A stretch of DNA of 64,000 nucleotides from a virus: positions 64,001 to 128,000 of IMG/VR virus record IMGVR_UViG_3300029913_000003; one strand, given 5' to 3'. This document shows positions 2,665 to 62,991 of this stretch, one piece after another. Position numbers and translations under genes: made by a program. Position 1 is the stretch's first letter, and every line of letters begins with the position of its first letter. The notes beneath the pieces are model-generated. The model ran no database searches. It was not told the origin of the DNA and worked only from the letters and a program-made list of their open reading frames with translations.

Positions 2665-2838
2665 ATGCAGGACGATAAAAAATGGTTAGAAGATATTAAT
2701 GACGATATGATATGTGAAGTTTGTGGGCATAAAAATAAAAATTGTACATGTAAAACTCAAAGAACTAATAATATAATTATGACAATTGGCGTTATTCTTC
2801 TTGTGTTAGCTTTTCTTGCATTAGAATTTTTAGTATAA
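2665..2838 (+). CDS. Small Cys-containing C-terminally membrane-anchored protein (57 aa)
   Basis: ATG at 2665 to TAA at 2836-2838. CEVCGHKNKNCTC motif and a hydrophobic C-terminal helix. Below the ORF-track cutoff. Confidence 0.3.
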   Translation: MQDDKKWLEDINDDMICEVCGHKNKNCTCKTQRTNNIIMTIGVILLVLAFLALEFLV

Positions 2839-2854
2839 AAATAAAATAAATAAT

Positions 2855-3184
2855 ATGATTAAAGTTTATATTGCATCTCCTTATACAAAAGGAGATCCTG
2901 CAGTTAATGTCAAAACTCAAATTGATATGGCAGATGAATTAATAAATAAAGGATTTGCGCCATTCGTTCCATTATATTTCCATTTTCAACATATGCATCA
3001 TCCCAGACCATATGAAGATTGGTTGAAATTAGATTTAGAATGGATAAAAAGTTGTGATTGTATATTAAGATTACCAGGAGAATCAAGCGGAGCAGATAAA
3101 GAAGTTGATTTTGCAACTAATAATGATACATTAGTATTTTTCTCAATGAAAGATTTATGTTTTTATTACGATATAGAATATTAA
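2855..3184 (+). CDS. Nucleoside 2-deoxyribosyltransferase-like (DUF4406-like) protein
   Basis: Pattern VYIASPYT ... W...LEWIKSCDCILRLPGESSGADKEVDFA resembles the DUF4406/NDT-like fold. The call is by recall only. Confidence 0.4.
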   Translation: MIKVYIASPYTKGDPAVNVKTQIDMADELINKGFAPFVPLYFHFQHMHHPRPYEDWLKLDLEWIKSCDCILRLPGESSGADKEVDFATNNDTLVFFSMKDLCFYYDIEY

Positions 3185-3300
3185 TTTATTGATATATAAA
3201 TATTTAAAAAATATTTTAAAATTTAACACTAAAATATTTGGTGATATGAAAACTTTTAGTAATTTTGCATCACAAACAAAAACAAATGTAATTATTTACA

Positions 3301-3345
3301 ATCAAATCAACTAAGAAAAATAATAAATATCTTAGTTGATTTGAT
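3301..3345. repeat. Perfect 15-bp inverted repeat (hairpin)
   Basis: atcaaatcaactaag ...15 nt... cttagttgatttgat. Confidence 0.5.
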
Positions 3346-3497
3346 AATTTAATAAGAGGACTTGAAAAAAATTTCAAAACTTTAACATTAAATATTTGGT
3401 GAAATGAAAACATTTTTATAATTTTATTCTACAATAAAAAAACAAAAATTTTTAAGTAATAGTATTGAAAAAAAAAAACTTCAAAACTTTATCATTA

Positions 3498-3533
3498 AAT
3501 ATTTGGTAAAACAAAAAACTTTTTGTAATTTTA
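3498..3533 (+). promoter_or_regulatory. Promoter-like unit (-33 TTTG, ~20 nt spacer, -7 TAATTTTA)
   Basis: Matches the Bacteroidetes sigma-A consensus TTTG-N19-21-TAnnTTTG, with one mismatch in the -7 box. Confidence 0.4.
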
Positions 3534-3550
3534 TTCTACAACAAAAAATA

Positions 3551-3568
3551 TCAAGTAAGAGTACTTGA
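3551..3568. promoter_or_regulatory. Palindromic operator-like site TCAAGTAAGAGTACTTGA
   Basis: Perfect 7-bp half-sites, located about 25 nt upstream of a promoter-like unit. Recurs at 4873-4888, 5182-5199 and 5925-5942. Confidence 0.35.
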
Positions 3569-3594
3569 GAAAAAAAGTTCAAAACTTTAACATT

Positions 3595-3631
3595 AAATAT
3601 TTGGTAAAACAAAAAACTTTTTGTAATTTTG
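3595..3631 (+). promoter_or_regulatory. Promoter-like unit (-33 TTTG; -7 TAATTTTG)
   Basis: Full match to TAnnTTTG, preceded by TTTG at about 20 nt. Confidence 0.45.
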
Positions 3632-3703
3632 AACTACAACATCAAAAGAAAAGTAATTATAAAAATTATATTTTAATTGAAAAAAAGTAGAAAAAACTTT
3701 CAA

Positions 3704-3740
3704 AAATATTTGGTAAAACAAAAAACTTTTTGTAACTTTG
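3704..3740 (+). promoter_or_regulatory. Promoter-like unit (-7 TAACTTTG)
   Basis: Same repeated core as the other units. Confidence 0.45.
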
Positions 3741-3813
3741 AACTACAATTCAAAAAGAAATATAGTTTTAAAAAATTAAATTTCAATTGAAAAAAGTTCA
3801 AACTTTAACATTA

Positions 3814-3850
3814 AAATATTTGGTAAAACAAAAAACTTTTTGTAACTTTG
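3814..3850 (+). promoter_or_regulatory. Promoter-like unit (-7 TAACTTTG)
   Basis: Same repeated core. Followed by hairpin RNA-like unit 3890-3958. Confidence 0.45.
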
Positions 3851-3889
3851 AACTACAATAAAAAACAAATCAAACTTCAGATTGAAAAA

Positions 3890-3958
3890 AATCTAATGGT
3901 ACAAAAACCAACTCAAAGCTTGCGAGAGTATAGATAGTGCAAATGAACACACTTAGAT
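3890..3958 (+). repeat. GC-enriched ~70-nt hairpin unit (candidate small RNA), diverged copy
   Basis: atctaatggtacaaaaacc..aagcttgc..atagtgcaaatgaacacacttagat. Terminal ATCTAA/TTAGAT inverted ends. Confidence 0.35.
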
Positions 3959-4167
3959 TAATGTAATAATAATTTAGTAGTAAGGAAACAAACTTTAATC
4001 TTGAAAAAGTTTATAGTGAAACTTGAAAATAAATTTAATATTACAAAAGTAAATATAGTAAGTTCAAACTTACTGTTTCTAATCTGTGAAGATAAAAAGG
4101 ACTGAAAATGATTTGATTTTTATTTACTCTTGTAAACGTACTTGAGAAAAAATAGAAAATACTTTCA

Positions 4168-4205
4168 AAAATATTTGGTAAAACAAAAAACTTTTTGTAA
4201 ATTTA
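4168..4205 (+). promoter_or_regulatory. Promoter-like unit (-7 TAAATTTA)
   Basis: Same core. Followed by the GC-elevated block starting near 4255. Confidence 0.4.
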
Positions 4206-4254
4206 TTCTATAATAATTTAAATCAAAAAATCAGATTTAAACAAGAAATATCAG

Positions 4255-4760
4255 CGAGATTTGCGCTCTGAGTGTATATATTTATAAGAAAATATATATC
4301 AACCAGATGAATGAGAAGCTCATAGTGGTGAGTCAATGATAAGATTATAATCTTAAATAATCAATATTATCAAAGATAGACAGTCCATTGAAACAGATAT
4401 ATAAGACATGTAGAACTTATCTTGTTATAAATATACAAAGCAACCACACCGTGGAGATTGAATATTGGAATTAAATTTCGAATATGATAAAATCCTAATG
4501 TTAGATGAGACGTGACTAACTACTTTCATTCCACTACAAGGACTGATTATTGATTAAATTATAAAATGTTGGAGATAAGCACACAGGGTGCATCATTATT
4601 AGAATAATCTAATTTGAAGGGGCAAGTGTCAATGACACAAGGTTCAATTCCTTCTATCTTCACTATGAATATTGATTTCAACACTGAAAATCAGAACTTG
4701 TTCTGAAAGTAAGTTCCACTATTGATATTCATAACCAACAACAAGCGAGTTTTGGTTAAA
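4255..4760. ncRNA. Candidate structured non-coding RNA (GC-elevated, ORF-free ~0.5 kb)
   Basis: GC clearly above the surrounding sequence. No ORFs. T-loop-like hairpin AAGG-TTCAATT-CCTT at about 4620-4637. Flanked by a 7-nt complementarity AGATAGA (4380) / TCTATCT (4641). Confidence 0.25.
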
Positions 4761-4913
4761 TAATAAATATTAAAAAATGTATATTAATTAATTGAAATCT
4801 CTTGAAAAAGAGCTGTTAATTTAAATAATATGATTTAATAACATTATTTAATCAAAATTCCTTGGATAAAAACAAGTAGGAGTACTTGAAAAATAGTTCA
4901 AACTTTAACATTA

Positions 4914-4950
4914 AAATATTTGGTAAAACAAAAAACTTTTTGTAAATTTG
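4914..4950 (+). promoter_or_regulatory. Promoter-like unit (-7 TAAATTTG)
   Basis: Same core. Followed by hairpin unit 4994-5062. Confidence 0.45.
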
Positions 4951-4993
4951 AACTACAATAAAAAAGAAAATCATAATTCAGATTTAATAGATA

Positions 4994-5062
4994 ATCTAAT
5001 GGGATAAAAACCACCTTGAAGCTTGCAAAAGGAAAGATAGTGCAATTAAACACTCTTAGATT
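4994..5062 (+). repeat. GC-enriched ~70-nt hairpin unit (candidate small RNA)
   Basis: Contains ccaccttgaagcttgcaaaagga. Confidence 0.35.
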
Positions 5063-5181
5063 GATAATGATAATAATCGTAAGATTATTAAATTACAAGA
5101 ATAAATATGATAAATGAAAATTTATTTTTTCTAAGCTGAGAAGCTAAAAGAACTGATAAAAGATTTTTTTTAATACTCATT

Positions 5182-5199
5182 TCAAGTAAGAGTACTTGA
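5182..5199. promoter_or_regulatory. Palindromic operator-like site TCAAGTAAGAGTACTTGA
   Basis: Identical copy of the palindrome at 3551-3568. Confidence 0.35.
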
Positions 5200-5221
5200 A
5201 AAAAATGTAGAAAAAATTCAA

Positions 5222-5258
5222 AAATATTTGGTAAAACAAAAAACTTTTTGTAATTTTG
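5222..5258 (+). promoter_or_regulatory. Promoter-like unit (-7 TAATTTTG)
   Basis: Same core. An upstream palindrome lies at 5182-5199. Confidence 0.45.
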
Positions 5259-5367
5259 TACTTAATAAATAATAATCATCTAATTGAAACTAGTTTATTG
5301 CTTCCATGTGATACTTCAATTTATGATTAGTAAGATTATTATTAATTTAAAAAAGTATAAAAATTCA

Positions 5368-5405
5368 AAAATATTTGGTAAAACAAAAAACTTTTTGTAA
5401 ATTTG
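5368..5405 (+). promoter_or_regulatory. Promoter-like unit (-7 TAAATTTG)
   Basis: Same core. Followed by hairpin unit 5465-5522. Confidence 0.45.
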
Positions 5406-5464
5406 GACTACAATAATGAAACAAATCAAATTTCAGATTGAAGCAATAAAAATATAATGGTACA

Positions 5465-5522
5465 AAAACCACCTTGAAGCTTGCAAAAGGAGATAGTGCA
5501 AATGAACACAACTTATATATTA
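5465..5522 (+). repeat. GC-enriched hairpin unit (candidate small RNA)
   Basis: Same core sequence as 4994-5062. Confidence 0.35.
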
Positions 5523-5544
5523 AGTATCTTGCTGAAACAATTAA

Positions 5545-5612
5545 AATCTAATGGGATAGAAACCACCTTGAAGCTTGCAAAAGGAGATAGTGCAATTAAA
5601 CACACTTAGATA
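5545..5612 (+). repeat. GC-enriched hairpin unit (candidate small RNA)
   Basis: Near-identical to 5639-5706. The tandem period is about 95 nt. Confidence 0.4.
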
Positions 5613-5638
5613 TTAAATATTGTATAAGTAACTAAAAA

Positions 5639-5706
5639 ATCTAATGGGATAGAAACCACCTTGAAGCTTGCAAAAGGAGATAGTGCAATTAAACACACTT
5701 AGATAT
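5639..5706 (+). repeat. GC-enriched hairpin unit (candidate small RNA)
   Basis: Near-identical tandem copy of 5545-5612. Confidence 0.4.
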
Positions 5707-5756
5707 TAATGAAATTGAAAAAGTAATAAAAATAATCAAAGGCAATAGCCACCTTG

Positions 5757-5792
5757 AAGCTTGCAAAAGGAGAGATTAATATTACAAAAGTA
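5757..5792 (+). repeat. Truncated copy of the hairpin unit
   Basis: agccaccttgaagcttgcaaaaggagag. Confidence 0.3.
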
Positions 5793-5979
5793 AATATTGC
5801 AAAAGTAATAAAAATTCAAGGATTTATATTACAAGAGTAGATATAATGAACATAACCAAATGTTTATTGTTCCAATGATAAAGTTCTGTGAAGAACAAAG
5901 GACTGAAATAGATTTGTGACATTTTCAAGTAAAAGTACTTGAACTTTTAAAACAACATGAATTAATATAAAATTATGTA

Positions 5980-6950
5980 GGTTGAAATTCCAGGAAAGTG
6001 GATCAATAATGAGCAGAAAGTTAATGTCTTTCTATCGCTTTTGTTAAGTCTTATTTAAAATTCTTCTATATTAATTCTGTTGTTTTTTTAAAGCGTTCTT
6101 TGTAAAATTGAAAATATTTGGCTGTCTGTAGTCATAAATAAACTACGAAAGTAGTATAAAGTGAGTTATAGTTGTTTCTATAACTTGCGGTATTAAATGT
6201 GCAGTTGATTTTATTTTTTCGGAAATAAAATTAATTGTAAACAATAATACTTGAGCAGACAATCAGGATATCATTAAACCTTGATTATCGAGGGTAACAC
6301 TGTAGAGAAAGTGGTTTAATGCAAAGGCTATGTGGGTAGTCTGAGTGAGATGGGAACATCAATAAGAATAACCTGAAGGATTATTGCAAGAAATACGATT
6401 TCCAGTTGTGTAATTGCGTTATCCAATATAAAAGTTGACTTAAAACCGAAAGGTAAATTAGATTGTAATACAATGTACAGGTGGTGCTGTAATTAAGGTT
6501 ACCTTAACATTACCAAGTGTTACGAGAGTATCTTAGTTGACTTAAAATATGGAGGTAGGGATATCTCAGAGAGTAGTTTAGTATAGCTCAGTTCAAAAGA
6601 TTGAGAAGCTGGTTGTCGAACCACTACTTTCATCATCCACAAAACAAACTTTAACTGCAAATTTAATGCAAATTAAAATAAACAAATAAAGGAAAAGAGT
6701 TCGACTGTTGTTAGTGATAGGTGACTACTAGTTATGAGAAGCAATTCGTCGTAGCCGTGAAAGACCCCAAGTCCAACATGATTTTTAAGAAAGTTCTCTA
6801 AATCCGCAAGATTTAATCTGGAAGGCATTCTAGATGAGTAATGATTATTAAGAGAGTAATTAACAACAAAAGGAGTGGTGAATCTAATTGACCGTCATTG
6901 GAGGAGTACCAATTCAAAAGATTGGTGGAAAAGAAGCAGAAAAAATAATA
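5980..6950. ncRNA. Candidate large structured non-coding RNA (GC-elevated, ORF-free ~1 kb)
   Basis: About 35-40% GC by eye against about 25% around it. No ORF of 60 aa or more on any frame. Many short GC-rich helices. A tRNA-like D-loop/T-loop pair (TAGCTCAGTT ... GGTTGTCGAACC) near 6580-6635. Confidence 0.3.
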
Positions 6951-6999
6951 GTTTCTAAAGTTCTTCTCTATAATGCTGTATTCTCAAGCAATATAAAAT

Positions 7000-7040
7000 A
7001 AAAATCCTATCTAATTGAAAAATTAGATAGGATTTTTTAT
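7000..7040. terminator. Bidirectional intrinsic terminator
   Basis: aaaATCCTATCTAATTgaaaaAATTAGATAGGATtttttt. Confidence 0.55.
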
Positions 7041-7085
7041 TTATAAGCTATTTCACTTATAAATACACTTTATAAGTTATTTCAC

Positions 7086-7397
7086 TTATAAATTGAATTT
7101 GTTTGCATCTTGTTTTAATTTATAATCTTTCATAAATTCTTCAACTTCGTCGTCAATAACTATATATTCTCTGTTTTTTAAACATAATCTATCATCCACG
7201 TACTTTCCTTTTTGATCTAGATACACTCCAACATCACCATTACAGGAACCAAATGGATGAGTAAGAGTACCAGTTAAATACTCATCATCCTCTTTAAATT
7301 TGATTTTAGTGCCTACTGGATATTTAGATCTACCTGCTAATATAACATCATCATCTAACATTGTAAATTGATGCTCATTAAATTTTAGTATTTTCAT
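7086..7397 (-). CDS. Family A variant (N-term MKILKFNE, C-term ANKFNL)
   Basis: C-terminal tag present. Start taken at the ATG at 7397 (MKILKFNEHQ), not at the upstream ORF-track start. Confidence 0.5.
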   Translation of the reverse strand: MKILKFNEHQFTMLDDDVILAGRSKYPVGTKIKFKEDDEYLTGTLTHPFGSCNGDVGVYLDQKGKYVDDRLCLKNREYIVIDDEVEEFMKDYKLKQDANKFNL

Positions 7398-7401
7398 ATT
7401 A

Positions 7402-7851
7402 CTATATATTAAATTTTTTAGCATTAAATATATCAGGATGATTTATCTCTAACCATTTGTTATATTCATCTAAATTGTTATAAGGTAGGTTATTACCTTC
7501 ACATACTAATATTTCTAATGTCTCTGGTAATAATGGTAACTCAGATAAATTATTATTACTACAATTTAATGTCTTTAATGAATATGGTAATGTCGGCAAT
7601 TCTTTTAAATTATTAGAATAGCAAAATATTTTTTTTATTGAGTGCGGTAAAGTAGGTAACTCACGCAAAACATTATTAAAACAAGATAATATCTCTAATG
7701 TCTCTGGTAATGTTGGCAATTCTTTTAAATTATTATTATAGCAATATAATTCTGTTGTTGTATCTGGAATATTTGATATTATAAATAATCCTTTATCATT
7801 TAATGTCAATACATTATCCATTATATGTTCAAATGTTTTTATATATTTCAT
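7402..7851 (-). CDS. Family A protein with leucine-rich repeats (LxxLPxLP type)
   Basis: N-terminal MKYIKTFE, C-terminal AKKFNI. Five tandem copies of NNLKELPTLPETLEIL. Confidence 0.65.
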   Translation of the reverse strand: MKYIKTFEHIMDNVLTLNDKGLFIISNIPDTTTELYCYNNNLKELPTLPETLEILSCFNNVLRELPTLPHSIKKIFCYSNNLKELPTLPYSLKTLNCSNNNLSELPLLPETLEILVCEGNNLPYNNLDEYNKWLEINHPDIFNAKKFNI

Positions 7852-23896: not shown

Positions 23897-24772
23897 TTAT
23901 AAATATTTGAAATAATTATTTTTATAAGATTTTTTGTTACCTGATAATACTTCCCATATTCTATTAGTTTTAGTATTAAAATACGACGCACAATTTTTTA
24001 CACTATTAAATTCTTTAATTATTTCTCCACTTTCTGATATTTGAGCAACTTTTTTAGATCTTAATAATTTATATTCTTCAGTCATAGGTCTTTTTTTTAC
24101 ACCAATCATAGCTTTACTCATTTTCAATTTAACTTCATCTGTTCTTTTTTGACCAGTATTCTTTTTTACCCTTTTTTCAATAGTTTCTTTACTTTGCTGT
24201 TTACCTTTTTTTGAAATGCTTATTTTTAATTTAGCTTCATCACTCATTTTTTTACCTTTATTTAATATACTTAATTTTAATTTAGTTTCATCACTTGTTA
24301 TTCTACCTTTTTGTGATTTACTCATTTTTAATTTAGTTTCATCTGAAATATTTATTCCTTTTAATTTTTCTGATATTATTTTTTTTGTTTCTTCACTTTG
24401 TTTTATACCAAAGTGACTTTTGTTTCCAATACTTTTTTGCCTTAATATATCTTTTGTTTTGTCACTATGTTTCATTCCTAAATTATGTCCAGCATTAGGT
24501 AAAATATTATATCCATTTTTACAGCAATCAAAAAAATCAATATAATATTGTTCTCTAATTAAAATTTCATTAATACTACATTCTTCTAAAATTGTATATG
24601 TAAAATTTTCAATACCATATTTATCATAAGCTCTTTGTAATTTAATAGAATGATGTTTATTCTTTTTTAATTGATTCTTATGTTGAGTAAATCTTCCTTT
24701 AACATTTATTGATGATCCAACATAACATTTATTATTTATTAAATTTGTTATTTTATATACACCAATAATCAT
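23897..24772 (-). CDS. GIY-YIG homing endonuclease (Seg/I-TevI-like) with C-terminal repeated DNA-binding modules
   Basis: GVYKITNLINNKCYVGSS..RFTQHKN is the GIY-YIG motif. Repeated SDETKLKMSKSQKG / SDEAKLKIS modules. Confidence 0.8.
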   Translation of the reverse strand: MIIGVYKITNLINNKCYVGSSINVKGRFTQHKNQLKKNKHHSIKLQRAYDKYGIENFTYTILEECSINEILIREQYYIDFFDCCKNGYNILPNAGHNLGMKHSDKTKDILRQKSIGNKSHFGIKQSEETKKIISEKLKGINISDETKLKMSKSQKGRITSDETKLKLSILNKGKKMSDEAKLKISISKKGKQQSKETIEKRVKKNTGQKRTDEVKLKMSKAMIGVKKRPMTEEYKLLRSKKVAQISESGEIIKEFNSVKNCASYFNTKTNRIWEVLSGNKKSYKNNYFKYL

Positions 24773-62811: not shown

Positions 62812-62904
62812 ATTTCAGGATTTTTTTGTTCTTTCTCTAAGATTTGAACTTAGTCATTCATTGTCAGAAAATGATATGCTATCATTACATCAAGAAAGAA
62901 TATT

Positions 62905-62991
62905 GTCGCCTTGGTGGGGTTCGAACCCACAAGCTCACAATGAGCATCAGTTTCAAAGACTGAAATGTTTAGCCAATTCCATCACAAGGCA
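62905..62991 (-). tRNA. tRNA, type II (long variable arm), anticodon UUG by manual folding
   Basis: Read on the minus strand:
- acceptor stem TGCCTTG / CAAGGCG (U1-G72 wobble), U8, A73
- 3-bp D stem ATG / CAT
- anticodon stem TCAGT / ACTGA with loop CTTTGAA
- variable arm GCTCA-TTG-TGAGC
- T arm GTGGG-TTCGAAC-CCCAC. Confidence 0.6.

Follow-up and report, generated by a model that had tools for sequence, protein, structure and literature searches.

Ten near-identical putative host-type promoters in a huge-phage island of structured RNAs ending in GOLLD

What are ten near-identical short units, all facing the same way, doing in a part of a phage genome that appears to encode no protein? The question arises from a window of 64,000 nucleotides (nt), the whole stretch of DNA analysed here (positions 64,001 to 128,000 of IMG/VR virus record IMGVR_UViG_3300029913_000003), in which the units span positions 3232-5405. 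An earlier examination of the letters alone (the sequence-only reading) had described them as promoter-like and suggested several roles for them; it had overlooked the GOLLD RNA that anchors the locus. The explanation favoured here, which we hold to be likely, is that the units are sigma-A promoters of Bacteroidota type, read by the host RNA polymerase, and set in cassettes that organise a GOLLD-containing island of non-coding RNAs (ncRNAs). What is unusual about the locus is how known parts are laid out; it does not represent a novel type of element. The argument is carried by the anatomy of the sequence, the fit of the units to a known promoter consensus, synteny with related genomes, conservation of RNA structure, and insertions and deletions (indels) bounded by whole cassettes.

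The earlier count of ten units is borne out. The 29-mer TATTTGGTAAAACAAAAAACTTTTTGTAA occurs in eight mismatch-free copies, starting at 3500, 3598, 3707, 3817, 4172, 4917, 5225, and 5372, and two degenerate copies were recovered by a fuzzy search with the 37-nt core (3390) and by a pattern search (3232). Numbered P1 to P10 (Table 1), they all lie on the + strand and are oriented towards GOLLD. The 29-mer was not found elsewhere in the window, even with three mismatches allowed, nor in any of 100 shuffles. The surroundings had been called free of open reading frames (ORFs), and this holds over about 1.7 kb more than had been noted: there is no ORF longer than 51 amino acids (aa) within 3185-7085, a 3.9-kb gene-free gap. 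It had also been remarked that some units have only another unit downstream, as is the case between the core starts at 3497, 3595, 3704, and 3814 (98, 109, and 110 nt apart); units of this kind are referred to below as “empty.”

Each unit consists of a -33 TTTG, a spacer of 20 nt (19 nt in P1), and a -7 box of the form TAA[T/C/A]TTT[G/A]; the cores fit TTTG/TANNTTTG, with the -7 box at -12 to -5, and an AT-rich tract lies upstream. The revised Bacteroidota consensus for the -7 element is TAHHTTTG (PMC6847099, PMC9723704), and in Flavobacterium the box likewise covers -12 to -5, with G virtually absent at -10 and -9 (PMC9723704, PMC6847099). None of the ten units has G at either position (A is invariant at -10, and T, C, or A occurs at -9). 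The fit to the sigma-A consensus had been described as perfect, which is accurate for the TTTG, for the 19-20-nt spacer, and for the exact -7 element TAnnTTTG (as TAHHTTTG) of seven units, but not for the three copies that end in TTTA (P2, P3, and P7, with A at -5). Within the eight exact copies, the sole variable position before the last base of the -7 box is box base 4, one of the “n” positions that the consensus leaves free. The strict pattern TTTG-N18-21-TAnnTTTG is found 11 times in the window, 7 of these in the array (shuffles, 2.8 +/- 1.7). A scan for E. coli-type promoters gave no enrichment (40 sites vs. 31 +/- 7 in shuffles), as would be expected if the host is not a sigma-70-consensus organism.

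The conserved part of the unit extends somewhat beyond the 37-nt core. Among 29 unique units from four genomes, column identity is 0.8-0.99 within a block of about 47 nt, from AAATATTTGG to ACTACAAT, and falls to 0.3-0.6 in the flanks on either side. In its size and position this block matches the footprint of an RNA polymerase. Transcription is predicted to start 41 nt beyond the first base of the core, within a conserved ACTACAA.

If these are promoters, what do they precede? The RNA island runs rightward over 3232-7037. P6, P7, P8, and P10 each have an RNA that is conserved and structured about 40 nt downstream: RNA A, RNA B, RNA C, and an array of D3 modules followed by GOLLD, respectively. 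The GOLLD match in Rfam (278.9 bits, E 1e-79, with a gathering score of 150) covers the full model, 1-416, at 6569-6990 on the + strand, and the start of its 5′ domain was placed near 6115 by alignment with a distant relative, LR745206. The terminator beyond it (7000-7037) is the sole canonical one found in 2700-7300. No sigma-A-type promoter was found between P10 and GOLLD by motif scan; lacking a promoter of its own, GOLLD is probably co-transcribed with the D3 array from P10. The promoter array thus most likely drives a set of structured ncRNAs ending in GOLLD, and an earlier suggestion, that it is a promoter bank for ncRNAs downstream, gains support from the roughly 40-nt distance between its cores and RNAs with orthologues in other genomes, and from the occurrence of the same promoter class ahead of tRNA arrays and tRNA-GOLLD operons in more distant phages (below).

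Table 1. Coordinates of the RNA island in the window; start sites and promoter-RNA assignments are predictions.
Feature	Position	Strand	Remarks
P1 and 16-bp hairpin RNA	3232-3345		
P2-P5, “empty” units	3390-3740		98-110 nt apart
P6 and RNA A	3814-4146		
P7 and RNA B	4169-4889		
P8 and RNA C	4914-5199		
P9 and short unit D	5222 to ~5345		
P10, D3 array, then ~170 nt	5369 to ~6115		
P1, degenerate unit	3232-3267	+	TTTG-19 nt-TAATTTTG; predicted start ~3272; perfect 16-bp hairpin 3301-3345 follows
P2, degenerate unit	3390-3426	+	8 mismatches to 37-nt core; -7 box TAATTTTA; predicted start ~3431
P3 core	3497-3533	+	-7 box TAATTTTA; predicted start ~3538; “empty,” only hairpin 3551-3568 before P4
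P4 core	3595-3631	+	-7 box TAATTTTG; predicted start ~3636; “empty,” 68-nt spacer with small hairpin
P5 core	3704-3740	+	-7 box TAACTTTG; predicted start ~3745; cassette 3681-3789 missing in both relatives
P6 core	3814-3850	+	-7 box TAACTTTG; predicted start ~3855; proposed driver of RNA A
P7 core	4169-4205	+	-7 box TAAATTTA; predicted start ~4210; proposed driver of RNA B
P8 core	4914-4950	+	-7 box TAAATTTG; predicted start ~4955; proposed driver of RNA C
P9 core	5222-5258	+	-7 box TAATTTTG; predicted start ~5263; followed by short unit D (to ~5345), this genome only
P10 core	5369-5405	+	-7 box TAAATTTG; predicted start ~5410; last promoter ahead of D3 array and GOLLD
RNA A	3855-4146	+	D3 module 3886-3963, degenerate D3 3967-4039, tail, imperfect terminal hairpin 4127-4146; folding z -2.75
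RNA B, ~680 nt	4210-4889	+	terminal hairpin 4872-4889; no Rfam family; folding z -5.75
RNA C	4955-5199	+	D3 module 4989-5066, tail, terminal hairpin 5182-5199; folding z -4.10
RNA E	5410-5942	+	full D3 5447-5523, 5541-5616, 5634-5709; degenerate D3 5730-5800; tail; hairpin 5925-5942
GOLLD RNA (RF02032)	6115-6990	+	Rfam 3′ domain 6569-6990; 5′ domain from ~6115
Bidirectional intrinsic terminator	7000-7037	.	17-bp stem, T-runs

That the regions between the promoters encode RNAs is suggested by their pattern of change. The D3 module, of about 76 nt, is present in five full and two degenerate copies. In a four-helix fold, 97% of the cells hold standard pairs (17 copies, three genomes), with nine cells changed on both sides compared to 1.5 in shuffles, and one pair found in four forms (C-G, A-U, G-C, and U-A). 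This covariation supports the outer stem and central hairpin only; the two 3-bp helices never covary. An 11-nt loop (GAAGCUUGCAA) is nearly invariant across copies and holds the self-complementary AAGCUU and UUGCAA; it is a candidate kissing loop. A D3 covariance model run on 757 kb of related and unrelated phage loci matched only the window and the two genomes related to it (L003 and L005), and nothing outside this clade. RNA B folds much more stably than shuffled sequences (z -5.75) and has 10 pairs with compensatory changes among three orthologues, and in one of its hairpins the stem sequence is fully different in each of the three genomes with the pairing retained.

Known families account for little of this. 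An Rfam scan of 2800-7400 at E<=5 returned GOLLD only, leaving the D3 modules, RNA B, and the short units unmatched, and ARAGORN at default thresholds called no tRNA in the island, neither in D3 nor in RNA B. Lowering its threshold to 80% or 60% yielded mismatch-ridden candidates on both strands, which were treated as noise. Separately, RNA B contains a tRNA-like sub-domain at about 4570-4665, with an 8-bp acceptor-like stem, several hairpins, and a T-loop-like arm (GGTTCAAnTCC). Another side observation concerns the short unit D, after P9: its segment UUUAUUGCUUC (5294-5304) is the perfect complement of GAAGCAAUAAA (5440-5450), which belongs to the leader that the D3-array RNA has downstream of P10; over the surrounding 28 nt, complementarity is 79%. 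This may reflect long-range pairing or antisense regulation.

The same arrangement is found in related phages. Exact-pattern scans located the core in huge-phage contigs of 38-330 kb, of which the related ones represent two further genomes (L001/L003/L008/L010 and L005/L007/L002+L004). Both are about 80-85% identical to the window across the island, and in both GOLLD follows the array (GOLLD scores in relatives are 243-287 bits). The 5′ ends of the RNAs that follow P6, P7, P8, and P10 are preceded by orthologous cores in L001/L003 and L005 as well. One contig considered for its ends as possible transcript ends, L006, is a 100%-identical genomic fragment of the window (4795-6273) and uninformative.

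Copy number is not constant: 10 units here, 7 in L003, 6 in L005, and at least 11 in a fourth, more divergent sequence (L009). In the three-genome alignment, two stretches of the window are missing from both L003 and L005, namely 3681-3789 (109 nt, one P4-to-P5 period) and 5226-5368 (143 nt, P9 to P10), and both start and end inside promoter cores. The L009 contig (Ga0302321_100474615, 1-1376; 1.4 kb) consists almost wholly of its units, in tandem and about 98 nt apart, each encoding one hairpin on its 5′ side (ACUAC...GUAGU) and another, closed by a GNRA-type loop, on its 3′ side. From this example, the “empty” unit is evidently able to expand into long arrays.

Variable copy number and the gain and loss of whole units are also what a selfish repeat would produce, that is, a mobile element, such as a miniature transposon, that multiplied within the phage or was acquired from the host; the sequence-only reading had named a miniature transposable element present throughout the host genome as a finding that would tell against its own proposals. 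Such elements should scatter, and the units do not: they occupy a single locus in a single orientation, with no copy elsewhere in the window and no core match in 185,579 species genomes. They have neither terminal inverted repeats nor target-site duplications, and homologous recombination between direct repeats accounts for the indels. This possibility is largely refuted, and is the one to which we attach the least belief.

Outside the immediate relatives, similarity at the DNA level is nearly lost: a sensitive search of the island against 50,697 phage records gave a single match, to the GOLLD 5′ domain of LR745206 (L011). This 634-kb genome has a GOLLD of 287 bits with a tRNA-Met directly upstream. 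Promoters of the class seen in the window (TTTGGTGrAATGAAAAAGTCACCGTATATTTG; TTTGGTGGAATGAAAAAGTCACCGTATATTTG, whose spacer is 20 nt, is an example) occur there three times, ahead of tRNA-like genes and the tRNA-Met-GOLLD operon. Two promoters lie 46 and 11 nt upstream of tRNA-like genes, while the middle one heads an “empty” unit of 91 nt. LR745206 also has two copies, 98% identical, of a tRNA-like element of 103 nt whose extra arm is long (5551-5653 and 6746-6848); they flank the tRNA-Met-GOLLD unit on either side. At 5293-5380, ARAGORN calls a tRNA-like gene, the anticodon loop of which is abnormal.

A degenerate form of the class pattern, TTTGGT-N6-AAAA-NN-TTTT-NN-TA-NN-TTTG, is present at more than 110 further loci in viral contigs. 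Of 117 matches, from contigs of which some are redundant, 24 have a same-strand tRNA starting no more than 400 nt downstream, compared to at most 4.9% expected for random positions within those loci. Tandem promoter pairs 90-99 nt apart stand ahead of tRNA arrays in L012 (90 nt) and in L028/L030/L065, and the downstream half of several promoters of the class hardly differs from that of the window core (e.g., TTTGGTAGATTAAAAAACTTTTTGTAATTTTG-cactataa in L094). Because the same class heads both tRNA arrays and tRNA-GOLLD operons in distant phages, the unit would seem to be a widespread stable-RNA promoter of Bacteroidota-type phages, in which tandem copies with short “empty” leaders are recurrent. 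The window itself has two adjacent tRNA-Gln genes (anticodons CTG and TTG; 62828-62991, - strand), with terminator-like hairpins upstream. The island type of promoter is absent ahead of them, and they are therefore unusable as an internal control.

Parallels to this layout exist in several known systems. The E. coli rrn P1 and P2 are tandem promoters of a stable-RNA operon. Like these and the phage examples above (L012, L030/L065, LR745206), the array has two or more presumably strong, co-directional promoters about 90-120 nt apart before stable RNAs, the first of which has only a short leader as its “product”; it differs in that the stack is five to six deep and that the promoter is used again internally, before each RNA gene. 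With T7 the array shares several apparently strong promoters for the host polymerase standing in tandem in a phage genome; the T7 promoters, A1-A3, differ in being ahead of protein-coding early genes and at a defined genome end. GOLLD itself was reportedly described by Weinberg in 2009 from phages and prophages, often next to or containing tRNAs. This setting is also given in a more recent account (Kretsch 2025, PMC12286853). The present locus conforms to it in having GOLLD at the 3′ end of a stable-RNA cluster, co-oriented with the RNAs ahead of it, and the tRNA-Met directly upstream in LR745206 is as in GOLLD env-38. The difference is that here ~76-nt D3 modules and a ~680-nt RNA take the places of the tRNAs.

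Some of the same features might instead suggest a replication origin, either an iteron cluster, as had been proposed earlier, or a transcription-primed origin of the T4 oriF/oriG type (a promoter with an AT-rich unwinding element). The direct repeats do lie in an ORF-free and very AT-rich region, T4 origins use promoters to make R-loop primers, and this phage encodes a T4-like gp32. The repeats, however, are 37-47 nt long, lie 98-745 nt apart in one orientation, and fit a promoter footprint, rather than being 17-22-bp sites in helical register; the DNA between them encodes conserved structured RNAs; no rep or initiator gene adjoins the region; and a coarse GC-skew profile has no turning point specific to 3-5.5 kb. 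With the same promoters heading tRNA arrays elsewhere, an origin appears highly improbable.

The second recurrent feature of the array is a palindrome, TCAAGTA-NNNN-TACTTGA (0.06 expected by chance). It had been described as a perfect palindrome before several copies; it is exact before P4 and P9, with a loop of 4 nt rather than 3, and elsewhere ranges from near-exact to degenerate. Exact copies are at 3551-3568 and 5182-5199, a near-exact one is at 4872-4889, and an imperfect one at 4127-4146. In terms of the promoters, it is clean before P4, P8, and P9 only, imperfect before P7, and degenerate before P2 and P3; before P5 and P6 there is a mini-palindrome (TTAATTGAA / TTCAATTGAA) instead. A further perfect copy (5925-5942) closes the D3 array with no promoter after it. 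Before P4, P7, P8, and P9 the order is hairpin, 19-26 A-rich nt, and core; the distance from palindrome end to core is 22-26 nt in the window, and indels in the A-runs shift it between genomes.

Is the palindrome a protein-binding site in DNA, or a hairpin in RNA? In L009 the same position is occupied by unrelated stems (UCAACA-GCAA-UGUUGA, UUAAC-AUCAAC-GUUAA, and UCAAGUA-GAAA-UAUUUGA, in which GCAA and GAAA are GNRA loops), the last of which contains a G.U pair, equivalent to a C.A mismatch if the opposite strand were read. Taken with the variable spacing and partial occurrence, these stems indicate that structure and plus-strand polarity are conserved, not sequence. A hairpin in RNA, closing the unit before it on the 3′ side, is therefore a better fit than an operator. 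The operator idea lacks support: the palindrome precedes only three or four of the ten units, at spacings of 22-26 nt, is replaced in a relative, and once stands without a promoter. Its 18-mer has four scattered single matches in the 185,579 species genomes (in an archaeon and in Bacilli, Methylotenera, and Sphaerochaeta metagenome-assembled genomes), which is chance level, so that it is not a known host operator or repeat. The hairpin may be an attenuator, a processing site, or a 3′ stabiliser, and this is the least secure step of the explanation; the A-rich tract after it could be a UP-like element of the next promoter. A role for the ACUAC...GUAGU and ATTGAAA motifs in CRISPR-repeat mimicry, or as an RNA anti-CRISPR, was considered and dropped, as nothing supported it.

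The same searches bear on the proposal that the array is a promoter or operator decoy, a sink titrating host RNA polymerase, sigma-A, or a DNA-binding regulator early in infection, its transcripts being by-products. Ten near-consensus sites within 2.2 kb, the lack of an obvious product for P2-P5, and a perfectly conserved, partly palindromic spacer that would suit a bound factor could all be read in this way. Against this, neither the 24-nt core nor the 18-nt palindrome recurs in the 185,579 reference genomes beyond the four single matches just mentioned, so no host regulon shares a site to be titrated, and ten sites per genome copy would be a small sink before replication. Four or five of the promoters stand precisely ahead of conserved, covarying RNAs, for which a decoy is unnecessary, and the same class heads ordinary tRNA arrays in other phages. 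A decoy is accordingly considered very unlikely.

The closest structural counterpart of the whole cassette is the PeSL (promoter-early plus stem-loop) of T4-like phages, in which an AT-rich tract joins a stem-loop to an early promoter that is strong and of host type, and which mediates modular shuffling (Arbiol 2010, PMC2839356; Comeau 2014, PMC4122927). Shared with PeSLs are the order of stem-loop, AT-rich tract, and promoter for a host sigma factor, the many near-identical copies in a plastic region, and the cassette-bounded indels between close relatives, as well as the T4-like gp32 of this phage. On the other hand, PeSLs flank ORFan protein genes, while the units flank ncRNAs; PeSL stems are GC-rich (GGGG...CCCC), proven terminators, while those of the units are weak, AT-rich, and without a U-tract; and the PeSL promoter is of the E. 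coli sigma-70 type, not the Bacteroidota type. Because of the differences in flanking genes and stems, the units are classed here as PeSL-like, not as members of the family.

A Bacteroidota-type promoter would imply a corresponding host. Shine-Dalgarno motifs are absent before 53 of the 54 window ORFs of at least 120 aa, and their absence is characteristic of Bacteroidota (PMC6847099). The nearest homologues of the window's gp32 (42-47% identity) are in huge phages of 634-735 kb, for which Bacteroidetes are the predicted hosts (PMC7162821). Both observations are indirect pointers to a host in Bacteroidota; a link through CRISPR spacers or prophages was not found.

The sigma-A consensus is missing before most protein genes of the window. 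Many of these have, directly before the ATG, a different motif, (ATTACAAn)CAAATAAATTTAA(C/T)nT, with 33 copies vs. 5.9 expected (for example at 7855, 8424, 20687, 22223, 36410, 37489, 37923, 38255, 51114, 52317, and 57556). This second motif probably serves as a promoter or leader peculiar to the phage and differs from the host-type promoters seen in the island. Since most protein genes lack the sigma-A consensus, the island may be that portion of the region which unmodified host polymerase reads. This division, the co-directionality of all ten promoters, and the size of the genome (at least 330 kb) would also be compatible with a genome-entry motor, in which a stack of strong host-type promoters at the first-entering end lets host RNA polymerase pull the genome into the cell, as happens in T7 with its tandem A1-A3. 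In assembled contigs, however, the island is at differing internal coordinates, and the idea leaves the promoters ahead of conserved RNAs unexplained; it must be judged exceedingly improbable.

In the favoured explanation, with the units as host-read sigma-A promoters, a cassette of about 100 nt would comprise the hairpin closing the previous unit, an A-rich UP-like tract, the -33/-7 promoter, and the conserved ACTACAA start region. P6, P7, P8, and P10 would drive RNA A, RNA B, RNA C, and the D3 array followed by GOLLD; P1-P5 would form a tandem stack with a spacing of about 100 nt ahead of the first RNA gene, akin to the promoters of stable-RNA operons; and P9 would head a lineage-specific insert. 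Given that the sole canonical terminator comes after GOLLD, transcription from the ten promoters would probably be additive towards it, with the weak hairpins, lacking U-tracts, serving as attenuators, processing sites, or 3′-end stabilisers rather than full stops. The near-identical cores would act as patches of homology, at which recombination could add or remove whole cassettes.

Several points weigh against this explanation. Transcription, its start sites, promoter strength, read-through, and the role of the hairpins are things we infer from sequence. As promoters, the ten copies depart from those described for Bacteroidota, which they resemble in having both elements at canonical spacing, no G at -10 or -9, and an upstream AT-rich tract: they are near-identical over the whole footprint, including the spacer, and are proposed to drive RNA genes, not mRNAs. 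In P2 (3390), P3 (3497), and P7 (4169), A replaces the nearly invariant G at -5, and these three may be weak promoters. The base after the -7 box is mostly A, where a pyrimidine is reported for Bacteroides (PMC12632263). The 20-nt spacer is perfectly conserved and has a symmetry (A6-C-T5 / ACAAAAA-AC-TTTTTGT), neither of which a promoter model needs; both may stem from concerted evolution or an extra bound factor.

Other difficulties concern the products and the hairpins. The “empty” units P2-P5 have no evident product beyond a weakly structured leader of 57-69 nt, and the stack P1-P5 is unusually deep, for which the explanation does not account. The hairpin stems are weak (-5 to -7 kcal/mol), AT-rich, and without a U-tract, with A-rich sequence following; the hairpins were not called in a terminator scan. 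The one before P7 has two T.T mismatches that are conserved in all three genomes, which would suit a sequence signal as well as a structural one. Finally, when the three genomes are aligned, the cores exceed the RNA bodies in conservation by only a moderate margin (90-93% vs. 83-85%).

With the anatomy of the array now largely explained, the more novel content of the locus is in the RNAs that the promoters are proposed to drive rather than in the promoter array. The D3 modules stand where tRNAs stand in other GOLLD loci. It is conceivable, if rather unlikely, that the island is a factory for partner RNAs of GOLLD, with the D3 modules as tRNA mimics, cargo, or multimerising partners of a GOLLD nanocage, and with the promoter stack setting the stoichiometry of RNAs A, B, C, and E to GOLLD. 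The “empty” units might in addition give rise to plentiful hairpin RNAs some 60 nt long, with separate functions.

The window as a whole has a G+C content of about 21%. The island is flanked by a gene for a DUF4406 protein and by an ORF of unknown function, and elsewhere the window encodes ankyrin-repeat and leucine-rich-repeat proteins (7402-9180), an Eco57I-like methylase (16679-18124), and a GIY-YIG homing endonuclease (23897-24772).

The locus leaves current understanding intact, and its value is that it is well delimited and experimentally tractable. Candidate strong promoters for Bacteroidota are available from it as a defined set, and it illustrates stable-RNA organisation in a huge phage as found in nature, with one promoter repeated ten times, both stacked and placed before each RNA gene. 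The idea of PeSLs as recombination handles would be extended from the ORFans of T4-like coliphages to the ncRNA genes of very distant phages. As for GOLLD, an RNA without an assigned function, it is found here in a compact and probably co-transcribed locus together with two types of RNA outside Rfam, in a lineage without its usual tRNA neighbours, which makes cooperation between GOLLD and tRNA-sized partner RNAs testable.

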